DNA from: an uncultured Actinomycetes bacterium
GTDB lineage: Bacteria > Actinomycetota > Thermoleophilia > Gaiellales > Gaiellaceae
Assembly (NCBI GenBank): GCA_963737565.1
Contig: CAVTTF010000013.1
Location: 112,281 to 176,280 of the forward strand
Direction of reading: 5' to 3'
DNA length: 64,000 nt
In this document: in pieces, positions 32,646-51,209 of the stretch
Numbering within the stretch: position 1 is the first letter of the stretch
Layout of the letters: every line of letters starts with the position of its first letter
Made by a program: the position numbers and the translations under genes
Notes under the pieces: model-generated
What the model was told of the DNA's origin: nothing
The model's database searches: none
Seen by the model: the letters and a program-made list of their open reading frames with translations, nothing else

Positions 32646-33412
32646 CGACCACGGCAGACGACCTGCGCGAGCAGGTCCGGGCCCGCTACGCCCAAACGGC
32701 TTTGGCGGTAGTGAAGGGCGAGGGCGGGTGCTGCGGAGACGACGCGTGCGGCGACGGAGCTTTCGGCGCTGCTCTCTACGACGACGACGCGCGGGGCGAG
32801 CTGCCCGACGCAGCCCGCCTGGCCAGCCTCGGCTGCGGCAACCCGACGGCGGTCGCCGAGCTCCGCGAGGGCGAGACGGTGCTCGACCTCGGCTCCGGCG
32901 GAGGCATCGACGTTCTGCTCTCCGCCCGCCGCGTCGGCCCCACCGGCACCGCCTACGGGCTGGACATGACCGACGAGATGCTGGCGCTCGCGCAGCGCAA
33001 CGCCGCCGAGTCGGGCGTGACGAACGCGCACTTCCTCAAAGGCCACATCGAGGCGATCCCGCTCCCGGCACAGAGCGTGGACGTCGTCATCTCCAACTGC
33101 GTGATCAATCTCTCTCCCGACAAGGCGGCCGTGCTCACCGAGATCGCGCGGGTGCTCAAGCCGGGCGGCCGTGTCGGAATCAGCGACGTCGTCGCCGACG
33201 ACGAGCTCTCGCCCGCGGAGCGCGCGGAGCGCGGTAGCTGGTGCGGCTGCGTCGCTGGCGCGCTCTCGCGCTCGGAGTACGTCGCCGGCTTCGAGGCGGC
33301 CGGGCTCACGAACGTCGAGGTGCGGTTCACGCACGGCGTCGCCGACGGCATGCACGCCGCGATCGTCAAAGCGACGAAGCAGGTGGCTTCGCTTCCTCCA
33401 GCCGCTGACTGA
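32642..33412 (+). CDS. arsM: Arsenite S-adenosylmethionine methyltransferase
   Basis: [35 protein letters not shown]; ATGA overlap with arsR. Confidence 0.9.
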
Positions 33413-48074: not shown

Positions 48075-48843
48075 ATGCTGCGGCTGCTCGGCGTCGGGTG
48101 GCTCTTCCACCTCAAGAGCCTGACGAACTCGCTGTTCTTCGTCCTGATCTCTGTCATGCAGCCGGTGATCTTCGCCTCGATCGCGTTCCTGATGGTGGAG
48201 AACGGGAATCAGTCGGGGACGCTCCTCTACGTCGCGCTCGGCGCGGGCCTCATGGGGATCTGGTCGTCGACGCTGTTCGGCTCCGGCGGCGCGATCCAGT
48301 GGCAACGGTGGCAAGGGACGCTCGAGCTGCTCGTCGCCGCGCCGGCCCCGTTCGTCTTCTGCCTCCTCCCCCTGACGGTGGCAACGTCGACGATCGGGCT
48401 CTATTCGATCGTCGCCACGTTGTTCTGGGGACGGGTCTTCTTCGGCGTTCCACTGGACTTCGTACACCCGCTGCAACTCGCCGTCGCCCTTCCCGTAACC
48501 GTGCTCAGCCTCGGCATGCTCGGCCTGGTCCTCGCCTCGACGTTCGTCCTCGCGCGGCATGCGCACCGCCTTCTCGAACCTCCTCGAGTACCCCGTCTGG
48601 CTCGCCACAGGACTGCTCGTCCCACTGACCCTGCTGCCGGCCTGGGTCGGGCCGATCTCGTGGGTGCTCGCGCCGACCTGGGGCATCGAGGCGATCCGCG
48701 ACGCGGCGATCGGTGGCTCGAGCGCGTGGCCGGAGATCGGCATGTGCGCAGCGCTCGGCGTCGTCTACCTCGCCCTCGGCACCGTCCTCCTCCGCAACTT
48801 CGAGCGGCTCGCGCGGCAGCGCGCGACGCTCGCCCTGACGTGA
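48075..48843 (+). CDS. ABC-2 permease A2 (paralog of A1; frameshift ~48560)
   Basis: GWLFHLK, RWQGTLELL, APTWG, RATLALT; TAGGTT-6nt-ATG leaderless-type promoter. Confidence 0.85.
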
Positions 48844-49629
48844 GCCCGGCCCTCCGCGTCTTCTTCGTCGGCGGCGCGATCTCGTATCGCGCGCTCTTCA
48901 ACTGGATCAGCCCGCTGATGTACGTGACCACGATGCTCGGCAGCCCGCTCTTCCAGGTGCTCTTCTTCACCTACCTCGGCCGCTACGCGGGCAGCGAGGA
49001 CGACGCGTTCTTCATCGTCGGCAACGCCGTCCAGGTCGCCGCGATGTCCGGGATCTACGGGATGACGATGGGAATCGCCAACGAGCGCCAATTCGGCACG
49101 CTCTCGCCGCTGCTCGCCACGCCGGCCAACCGGCTCGCGGTCTTCTCCGGGCGAGCGCTGCCGTTCGTCGCCAACGGGCTCGTCGTGTCCGCCTTCGGCT
49201 TCGCGGTCGGGTGGCTGCTGCTCGACTTCGAGCCCGCGGCCGGCAGCCTTGCCGGCGCTCGCATTCGTCGTCGTGGTGACGACGTCGTCGTGCGTCGCGC
49301 TGGGGATGCTGATCGGCTCGATCGGCCTGCGGGCCCGCGACGTCTTCTTCGGGGCCAACCTCGTCTACTTCCTGATGCTTCTCGTCTGCGGCGTCAACGT
49401 CGCCGTCGACGACCTGCCCGGCTGGCTGCAGCCGATCTCGAACTCGCTGCCGATGACACACGGGATCGAGGCGGCCCGCGAAGTCGCAGCCGGGGCGCCG
49501 CTCAGCGACGTCTCGGGCCTCCTCGCGACGGAGGCGCTGATCGGGCTCGCGTACGCGGCGGTCGCGTACGGCCTCTTCCGCCTGTTCGAGCTCGAAGGCC
49601 GGCGGCACGGCACGCTCGAGACGTACTGA
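48840..49629 (+). CDS. ABC-2 permease B2 (paralog of B1; frameshift ~49250)
   Basis: RVFFVGGAISYRALF, ERQFGTL, LPGW, PMTH. Confidence 0.85.
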
Positions 49630-49653
49630 GCGCGCACGTGCAAGACTCGGGTC

Positions 49654-50395
49654 GTGTCACGCGTCGTCGACCCGGAGCAGACGCACCTCGCGCGTCCTGC
49701 GCGGGCTGGCGGACTTCCGCGGCGCCCGCGTACTCGAAGTCGGCGCCGGCGAAGGCCGGCTGACGACGGGCTTCGCGGCCGGAGGCGGCGTCTGTGCTGG
49801 CGATCGACCCGCGACACCGATTCGATCGCGGAGGCCGAGCAGGCGCTCGCGGCGGACCTGCGCGAGAAGGTCACTTTCCGCGTGGCGTCGGCCGGCGAGG
49901 TCGACGTGCCGCGGTCGAGCTTCGACCTCGTGCTCTTCTCCTGGTCGCTCTGATGACTGGAGACGGAGGGCGTCGTGGACGTCCTGCGCCACCTCTACGA
50001 GACACTCGCGCCCGGCGGCGTCATGCTCGACCTCCGCTCGGTGCCGCCGCCCTCGCTCGTCGAGGTCGACGGCAAAGCGATCGGCGAGCTCGACGAATCG
50101 GAGTTCTTCCCGCGGAGCGAGCACAACGGCGACGCGCTCGCGGCGCTCGCCGCCGAGGGGTTGCTGACCCTCGAAGGCGAGGAGCGGCACGAGATCCTGA
50201 TCGTCTATCCCACCGGCCGCGACCTCGTCGACGACGTCGCCGACTGGGGCAGCACGAAGGTGCCGGAGACGCTGGCGGCGCGGCTCATGGCGATCGACCG
50301 CGAGTGCCGGATCCGCGATTCTGCCTGCATCGCGCGTCACCCGTCGCCGCCCGCAGCGGTGCCCGGAAGCCTCGGACCGGACGAGCTCGCGCTAG
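49654..50395 (+). CDS. Class I SAM methyltransferase with two adjacent in-frame TGA codons (candidate UU selenoprotein)
   Basis: Motif I VLEVGAGEG (49730-49756, shifted frame), VLAIDP, then FDLVLFSWSL-TGA-TGA-LETEGVVDVLRHLYETLAPGGVMLDL in one frame. Three compensating indels in the 5' part; 3' end approximate. Confidence 0.75.
49967..49985 (+). promoter_or_regulatory. Candidate bacterial SECIS element
   Basis: Stem AGGGCGTC/GACGTCCT (one G-U pair) with GTG apical loop, beginning 10 nt after the second TGA. Confidence 0.6.
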
Positions 50396-51209
50396 AAGAA
50401 GAACTGCTTCCAGGCCTCCCACCAGGTGTCGGCGCGCGAGACGATCGTCCGGGCGTCGACCCGCTCGACGCCGTGGCGGTGGCGGAGCTGCGTCGGGCGC
50501 GAGCGTGTTCTTGAACTCGACCCGGATCTCGCACGGGCTGCCCGGGTCGTACGGCTCGACCGCCGCGAGATCGGCGAGCGCGCGCTTCGCGCCTTCCTCG
50601 ATCAGCTTGCGCGCCCGCAGCGGCGCGACATCCGCGCGCTCGAATCGCCGAGGCCCTGCTTGACCGCGACGGTCGTCAGCCCGTCGCCGAGCAGCTCCGT
50701 GCCCTCGCGGCACGCGGCCTCGTCGCCGGTGACGAGGAGCGACCGGGCAGCCCCAGGTCCCGCAGAGCGCGGCGTTGATCCCCGTCTCGCCGACGAGCGT
50801 GCCGTTGAACCAGAGGTTCTGCCAGTCGCTGGCCCGAAACCGTGTGGTTCATCACGCCGTCGGGCGTGCCGGCCATGCGCGTGCATGCCGACGAAGAGCG
50901 CGGCATCGCACGCCGTCCTCGAGGAAGCTCGGTGTACTCCGTCCACTCGTCCTGGACGACGTAGTCGCACGTCCTCGTCGAGCAGGTCGGGAACGAGCGA
51001 GTTGAACATCCACTCGTCGCCGGCGCCGTGGCAGTCCATGACGACGATCTCGGTCGCTCCGGCCGCCTTCGCGCCGCGGACGGCCGCGTTGATCTCCTCG
51101 GTGTAGAGCCTTGCGGCCTCGTCGTAGAGCGGCGCGGCCCCCGATGGATCTGCGCGCACTTGACGATTCCGGACACGCCCTCCATGTCGCTGATGACGAA
51201 CACGCGCAT
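50392..51209 (-). CDS. M55 D-aminopeptidase (DppA-like; several frameshifts)
   Basis: ISDMEG, EINAAV.GA..AGA, DCHG, FVGMHA, NHT, VTGD, VAVK. Confidence 0.85.

Follow-up and report, generated by a model that had tools for sequence, protein, structure and literature searches.

A methyltransferase gene of a soil Gaiellaceae bacterium with two adjacent in-frame UGA codons, probably read as a selenocysteine pair

Here, we describe a methyltransferase gene whose reading frame is crossed by two directly adjacent TGA codons, followed by a hairpin that resembles the bacterial selenocysteine insertion sequence (SECIS). The gene lies in the genome of a soil bacterium of the Gaiellaceae (Thermoleophilia, Actinomycetota), in a stretch of 64,000 nucleotides that we call the window (G000:C13:112281-176280); the source is a metagenome-assembled genome (MAG; G000) of 2.69 Mb in 19 contigs, scored as 65% complete, and the encoded protein is about 230 aa long. 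The open reading frame (ORF) 49654..49953 runs to ...FDLVLFSWSL and closes with the first TGA. The in-frame TGATGA occupies 49951-49956 (codons 49951-49953 and 49954-49956), and past both TGAs the same frame reads LETEGVVDVLRHLYETLAPGGVMLDL. The hairpin (8 bp; 5' arm 49967-49974, GUG loop 49975-49977, 3' arm 49978-49985) begins 10 nt past the second UGA and 13 nt past the first. A first-pass annotation of the stretch had reported this arrangement, and the sequence is as it claimed. The parts of the gene are listed below, with U and C denoting selenocysteine (Sec) and Cys at the two positions of the pair, so that relatives may be of UU, UC, CU or CC form.

49654 to 49950, forward strand: N-terminal half of the methyltransferase gene, traced by three-frame translation, by tblastn against two relatives (L109, L114) and on independent contigs.
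49951 to 49953, forward strand: first in-frame UGA, putatively read as Sec, pair position 1; TGA in 75 of the 77 loci of Sec form, Cys where the form is CC or CU.
49954 to 49956, forward strand: second in-frame UGA, putatively read as Sec, pair position 2; TGA in 43 of 73 species loci.
49957 to 49966, forward strand: translated spacer of 10 nt from the second UGA to the hairpin (codons L, E and T plus one base), with coding-type variation.
49967 to 49985, forward strand: SECIS-like hairpin within the coding sequence, recognised by conservation, covariation and frozen third positions.
49986 to 50395, forward strand: C-terminal half with helix alphaD, the LAPGG strand and a beta-rich cap subdomain, by alignment to L109 and L114.

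As assembled, the 5' part of the gene cannot be read straight through. The ORF 49654..49953 follows the correct frame only from about 49815 onwards; ahead of that point, three-frame translation shows the protein-like frame switching three times (frame 1, VVDPEQTHLA; frame 2, VLRGLADFRGARVLEVGAGEGRLTTGFAA; frame 0, ASVLAIDP; frame 1 again, DTDSIAEAEQ...), and the true N-terminus thus spans three +1 frame changes. The gene probably starts at GTG 49654, and its N-terminal half holds motif I of S-adenosylmethionine (SAM) binding (EVGAGEG, in frame 2) and strands beta1-beta4, ending with FDLVLFSWSL. On the other side of the pair, tblastn aligns the C-terminal half with L109 and L114 up to about 50340-50352. 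The reading frame is open as far as 50514 and the true stop of the window copy is uncertain; one related contig has 95 other bases in place of 50319-50391 (joint 50318/50392).

Independent sequence came from Logan contigs of four metagenome runs on soil or rhizosphere, belonging to three studies; we compared these contigs with the window over 49400-50600. The runs are stored as contigs and contain at most 29% of the sampled words. The contigs are one base shorter than the window at each of three places, 49690, 49781/2 and 49811/2, which coincide exactly with the three frame changes. Where they cross 49951-49956, in all four runs and three studies, they align with 0 gaps and 2-12 mismatches, none of them at TGATGA:

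Contig X1, covering 49913 to 50073: no difference at 49951-49956.
Contig X3, covering 49933 to 50140: no difference at 49951-49956.
Contig X5, covering 49840 to 49999: no difference at 49951-49956.
Contig X2, covering 49885 to 50318: no difference at 49951-49956.

With the three bases deleted, a continuous methyltransferase frame results, whose product shares 50-52% identity with its closest relatives (L109, L113, L114, L116) across about 225 residues. Because contigs lacking the three bases keep TGATGA, and because the corrected protein is conserved, the three N-terminal frameshifts are single-base assembly insertions and TGATGA is real. The insertions probably derive from long reads. Further single-base indels against the short-read contigs occur at 50490-50491 and 50564-50572, where they break the neighbouring D-aminopeptidase gene; such indels, together with 65% completeness in only 19 contigs, point to an error-rich long-read assembly.

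What do relatives carry in place of the two TGAs? Database homologs of full length (227-280 aa), which share 50-63% identity with an intact relative, have Cys-Cys at both columns almost without exception (FSWSL-CC-V/M/I); one database protein, P0007, has Arg-Cys. We classified 73 species-representative loci, most of them from MAGs of the Gaiellaceae, Gaiellales or Thermoleophilia and a few from MAGs labelled Chloroflexota or Myxococcota, and found the pair coded as UU in 43, as UC in 28 and as CU in 2. Thus TGA-TGA, TGA-Cys, Cys-TGA or Cys-Cys stands at exactly these columns, similarity is conserved on both flanks of the pair across all four forms, and most UU ORFs are otherwise intact and full-length. 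The second column holds TGC or TGT (Cys) in the UC and CC forms and the sole TGA in the CU forms. Within the genus of the source genome the family is present in 16 of 110 genomes: as UC in ten, as CU in G066, as CC in G133, as TGA followed by a Trp codon in G020, and as TGATGA, with both columns again TGA and the ORF otherwise intact, in G129 and G063. Beyond these genomes, the exact pattern of SWSL-TGATGA plus hairpin matches at least 120 metagenome contigs. The Cys codon that follows the single TGA of the UC forms varies synonymously (TGC/TGT), and the next three codons vary in a coding-like way, which argues that translation passes the UGA. Many database fragments of about 133 aa are downstream halves that gene callers have started at the GUG of the hairpin.

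On a quick maximum-likelihood tree (86 rows, midpoint-rooted), UU is found in all deep clades, the window copy clusters in an all-UU clade (L109, L113, L114, L116), and the supported branches require at least four changes of the UU label. This tentatively suggests, as far as a quick midpoint-rooted tree can, that UU is old and has been repeatedly replaced by Cys.

The hairpin is conserved along with the pair. In the alignment it is found in 77 of 77 Sec forms, with a core stem of 7 bp for the family as a whole (49967-49973 with 49979-49985), the loop CGUGN and the consensus AGGRCGU/ACGYCCU. Its stem shows compensatory change at three pairs: 26-38 (AU 46, GC 18, GU 6, unpaired 4), 25-39 (GC 69, AU 3) and 29-35 (UA 69, CG 3, UG 2), and the covariation score lies above all 500 shuffles and all slid controls. 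Several of the paired changes alter amino acids on both arms (D..V vs G..A; V..N/H/D vs A..R), and conservation of the protein alone is therefore insufficient to account for them. Entropies by codon position, calculated on 74 distinct sequences, tell the same region apart from its surroundings. The three codons between pair and stem vary mostly at their third positions (1.4-1.7 bits), and the first of them always has T in second position, a pattern of the coding type, so that the spacer codons appear to be translated past the UGAs; in the seven hairpin codons, third-position entropy falls to 0-0.56, and after the hairpin it returns to 1.2-1.7. This indicates that an RNA constraint overlies the coding sequence in the hairpin. 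Among four Cys-Cys forms with DNA available, the hairpin is kept in one, has a mutated loop in one and is lost in two, and Cys-Cys proteins are far more variable in the hairpin segment. As for spacing, the single UGA stands 13 nt from the hairpin in UC forms and 10 nt from it in CU forms, and in the clade of G129 and G063 the spacers are 16 and 13 nt.

The source genome has the machinery for Sec. Profile scores above the cut-offs were obtained for selD (362 bits), selA (507 bits) and selB (336 bits), and a tRNA-SeC (anticodon TCA) lies beside selB/selA at G000:C11:108583-108674. In the genus, selA is present in 40 of 40 high-quality genomes, and its co-occurrence with Sec forms is therefore without contrast. 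Other candidate selenoprotein genes accompany this machinery. An FdhA-like molybdopterin oxidoreductase with SCEAT-U-HAP is encoded at G000:C11:212957-213691 on the reverse strand (L145); its Sec site is followed after about 16 nt by a hairpin of 6 bp with the loop UGGUCA. Two ArsM-like genes have an in-frame TGA in a UxxG context, WTG-U-IAGAL and WAG-U-VAGAL (L269, C10:13990-14766, reverse strand; L274, C10:16273-16860, forward strand); both are frameshifted by assembly errors, and no member of the UU family adjoins the ArsM-like genes on contig C10. A further ArsM-like gene, 17 kb upstream of the UU gene within the window (32783-33322, forward strand; G000:C13:145063-145602), is free of in-frame stops.

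Given UGA codons that align with Cys, a conserved SECIS-like hairpin and the Sec machinery, we propose that this is a live selenoprotein gene with a Sec-Sec pair, a reading that we consider roughly 87% probable from comparative sequence data. The first-pass annotation had likewise taken both UGAs as Sec, and hence the product as a class I SAM methyltransferase with a vicinal UU site and a SECIS-like hairpin in its gene, and the homologs, the covarying hairpin, the machinery (selA, selB, selD and tRNA-Sec) and the independent contigs all speak for it. We infer that two Sec residues are inserted: both UGAs would be decoded by SelB with Sec-tRNA(Sec), recruited by one in-frame hairpin that would serve two consecutive deliveries, 13 nt and 10 nt from the UGAs. 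Relatives with UC only and CU only indicate that each position of the pair may be decodable on its own.

Several points weigh against the proposal. The window copy is frameshifted as assembled and the position of its stop codon is uncertain. Folded alone, its hairpin has z = -1.44, unremarkable for its G+C content, and the weight of the hairpin therefore rests on the comparison with relatives; an Rfam scan of 49850-50100 returned no SECIS family and no other credible match. In all family members, GGAGG in the 5' arm and GUG in the loop (49963-49977 in the window) resemble a ribosome-binding site with a start codon. One relative in the genus, G020 (L030, G020:C1, about 183.1 kb), has TGA-TGG, with Trp at the second position of the pair. 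To our knowledge, no bacterial SECIS has been reported to direct two SelB deliveries in a row, and such double delivery may be very inefficient.

One alternative, although improbable, is that only one of the two UGAs is Sec, the other being read by a near-cognate tRNA (Trp or Cys) or mostly terminating, so that the site would resemble U-C. The UGG of G020 fits this, as do the frequency of UC (28 of 73) and the fact that Sec insertion in bacteria is generally inefficient and sensitive to spacing, the SECIS of E. coli fdhF lying at about 11 nt. Yet both spacings of the window occur singly in nature (13 nt in UC and 10 nt in CU forms), the G129/G063 clade manages with 16 and 13 nt, and TGA is kept at the second position in 43 of 73 species across deep clades, although TGC would be only one substitution away were Cys needed. 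The G020 locus is itself a close relative of the UU gene in G129, and its TGG is one transition from TGA; it may be a functional variant, a copy in decay or a sequencing error.

The main rival, at similarly low odds, is a split gene, in which TGATGA would be a tandem stop, the C-terminal half would be reinitiated at the hairpin GUG with GGAGG as its Shine-Dalgarno sequence, and the two halves would assemble. GGAGG, five bases and GUG do make a canonical start context, from which gene callers consistently call an ORF of about 133 aa, and a conserved hairpin could in principle regulate reinitiation. Against this, TGA is exchanged for Cys column by column at the same length in all of the UU, UC, CU and CC forms; the codons between the TGAs and the GUG vary as coding sequence does, with third positions free to change and T fixed at a second position; where only one TGA is present, the Cys codon behind it takes synonymous forms; the CC genes each encode one polypeptide, in some cases with the same GGAGGACGUCGUG (L143); and the structural model described below is one compact domain in which beta4 and alphaD flank the pair. 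The annotation of the downstream half as a separate 133-aa ORF then follows from the mimicry of a ribosome-binding site and start by GGAGG and GUG.

Least probable of all is that the window copy is a pseudogene or its second TGA an assembly or sequencing error: three frameshifts within 130 nt, an uncertain 3' end, broken neighbouring genes and a 65%-complete MAG in 19 contigs fitting a noisy long-read assembly would favour it, but in contigs of three studies precisely the three extra bases are missing and TGATGA is retained, TGATGA is found again in 43 species genomes and in at least 120 metagenome contigs, and the corrected protein is conserved over its whole length.

Returning to the candidate Sec-Sec gene, its product is a class I SAM-dependent methyltransferase by Pfam score, by its EVGAGEG motif and by its Rossmann-like fold. 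Even the frameshifted window product scores above the Pfam thresholds, with 29.8 bits for PF13649 (Methyltransf_25; cut-off 27) and 26.9 bits for PF08241 (Methyltransf_11; cut-off 21.2). An AlphaFold2 model of the closest intact UU relative, built on an alignment of 61 sequences (predicted local distance difference test score, pLDDT, 94.9; predicted template modelling score, pTM, 0.90), is a single class I methyltransferase domain that spans both halves and bears a beta-rich cap. In it the pair forms residues 95-96, in the loop between beta4 (85-91) and helix 99-111. The top Foldseek matches are all class I methyltransferases; against the PDB these are generic small-molecule enzymes (TTHA0223, TleD, RebM and phosphoethanolamine methyltransferases; TM about 0.6) and give no functional lead.

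The post-beta4 segments that match the pair region in solved small-molecule methyltransferases are NWLLMY and ESLCHM. By sequence, the best solved relatives are phosphoethanolamine N-methyltransferases, whose post-beta4 NWLLMY (TILH in the second domain) aligns with SWSLUU. The AdoMet and substrate sites of PfPMT are connected by a dyad of Tyr19 and His132 (PMC6705855). The His of the post-beta4 ILH motif is probably His132. The pair therefore most likely lines the methyl-acceptor pocket.

In light of this placement, what might a Sec-Sec pair do in a methyltransferase? One option is that a vicinal diselenol would line the methyl-acceptor pocket and bind a soft metalloid or chalcogen (of the As, Se or Te type) for SAM-dependent methylation. 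The hypothesis is drawn from the main clade of the family, where a Sec gene of the ArsM type adjoins. The operon that recurs in the main clade comprises a divergent LysR regulator or an ArsR/SmtB-helix-turn-helix-rhodanese fusion, a protein of the metallo-beta-lactamase fold (GloB/Blh-like), a major facilitator superfamily transporter, a DsrE-like protein, an ArsM-like protein and the UU-family gene. Of the 73 loci, 19 have the ArsM-like gene immediately upstream in the same orientation, and 11 more have it elsewhere within 4 kb. Among these 19 upstream ORFs, 17 stop at a TGA in WTG-U-IAGAL, the UxxG Sec motif of the selenoprotein ArsM. Read through, the upstream protein scores 228 bits against NF008823 (cut-off 263), and it has SNGV (Gly) where ArsM has the As-binding SNCV (Cys). 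Gene callers cut this upstream gene at 200 aa (L094:3039-3827 and 18 other loci). The ArsM-like gene at 32783-33322 of the window encodes a product 43% identical to the operon protein.

The window's own clade is without the ArsM-type operon, a point that tells against the functional part of the proposal. Its conserved neighbours are a convergent D-aminopeptidase (M55), a short-chain dehydrogenase/reductase, branched-chain amino-acid ATP-binding cassette (ABC) genes and ABC-2 transporters. Hence binding and methylation of a soft As-, Se- or Te-type substrate at a diselenol is a tentative proposal that we would put at rather less than even odds, and it is weak for the clade of the window. More doubtful still is the combined mechanism, in which two SelB deliveries from one hairpin would furnish a diselenol at which a metalloid or chalcogen methyltransferase binds its substrate or relays the methyl group. 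The suggestion in the first-pass annotation of a thiol or metalloid substrate thus finds some operon support in the main clade and none in the window, and it remains an inference.

Around the gene in the window, a D-aminopeptidase gene (Peptidase_M55; 50393-51209, reverse strand) converges on the methyltransferase and has a frame change; a convergent D-aminopeptidase also adjoins the UU gene in L109, L113 and L116. Upstream, the ABC-2 type permease gene or genes at 48075-49629 (forward strand) are split into an ORF ending near 48560, a continuation at 48559-48843 and a piece at 49249-49629, probably by the same kind of assembly error. A homocysteine S-methyltransferase gene (PF02574; 52880-53752, forward strand) lies 2.5 kb downstream; the PF02574 family includes selenocysteine and selenohomocysteine methyltransferases.

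How does the gene compare with known systems? It resembles bacterial genes that depend on SECIS and SelB, such as fdhF of E. coli and the FdhA-like gene of this genome, in having an in-frame UGA at the Cys position of its homologs, selA, selB, selC and selD in the genome, and a hairpin 10-16 nt downstream within the ORF with G/U in its apical loop. It differs from them in that two directly adjacent UGAs share one hairpin. A 2026 inventory of 119 prokaryotic selenoprotein families lists multiple Sec residues only in separated arrangements (UxxU, UxxxxU or separate domains) and no adjacent UU (PMC13188914).

The first-pass annotation had pointed to MduS, the methyltransferase domain-containing double selenoprotein, and this link does not hold. 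The model exists (NF045649), and MduS does share a class I methyltransferase domain (PF13649) and two Sec residues with the present family. Intact relatives score only 27.6 and 20.9 bits against its cut-off of 380, and the read-through product of the window gives no match to NF045649 at E <= 1. The proteins also differ in that the present family has the SWSL-UU motif in about 230 aa and the MduS model has 338 positions; MduS is listed as CxxU with two non-adjacent Sec residues (PMC13188914). The Sec-containing ArsM proteins (NF008823, with UxxG; ArsM/DUF2284, NF041536; ArsM/AhpD, NF041537) are likewise SAM methyltransferases in which a substrate-binding Cys has become Sec. Here the family scores 10.5-29.8 bits against cut-offs of 263, 575 and 510, and it is without UxxG; unlike in ArsM, its pair lies three residues past the post-beta4 Cys column (SNCV) and not at the UxxG site, and the C-terminal subdomain is different. 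The best NCBIfam match, the corrinoid protein-associated methyltransferase CpaM (NF043040), reaches 24-61 bits against a cut-off of 180, and another profile model with a cut-off of 460 bits gives only 24.4 and 15.8 bits. No match was found to the ArsM, UXPK-star or other NCBIfam selenoprotein models.

Two other kinds of protein invite comparison. In the algal PDI_e (GUGUU), two Sec codons directly follow each other; it was described in 2020 as the first selenoprotein with Sec-Sec, its authors reporting no bacterial homologs (PMC7539508). Unlike the UU family it is eukaryotic, has a thioredoxin fold and relies on a SECIS in the 3' untranslated region without spacing constraint. It was the only reported Sec-Sec protein found in our literature search, which turned up nothing relevant on tandem, adjacent or consecutive Sec in bacteria or on selenoproteins of the Gaiellales. 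In the vicinal Cys-Sec (CU) proteins SaoC, SaoL, HgcA and MbdU, the pair derives from Cys-Cys and is proposed to bind soft metals (PMC13188914). They are like the UU family in having an adjacent chalcogen pair derived from Cys-Cys and unlike it in having one Sec per pair and unrelated folds, none being a methyltransferase with the pair after beta4. On our reading, the family is a widespread one of selenoproteins that is missing from current catalogues.

If our reading is correct, the bacterial SECIS/SelB system can reload from one codon to the next and works with spacers of between 10 and 16 nt. Because a bacterial SECIS must sit just behind its UGA, a natural UGA-UGA with one hairpin directly tests the spacing of SelB, hairpin and ribosome, and reloading. 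The gene would also represent the first bacterial enzyme site with Sec-Sec, one apparently ancestral in a family that is common in soil Gaiellales, and a vicinal diselenol would be chemically unusual, its redox potential being very low and its affinity for soft metals very high. At present, hundreds of genomes and metagenomes carry the UU gene as two separate "hypothetical proteins" because gene callers split it, an annotation that a curated model would mend. As the family is common in soil Actinomycetota and linked to ArsM-like genes, it could matter for the cycling of arsenic, selenium or tellurium.

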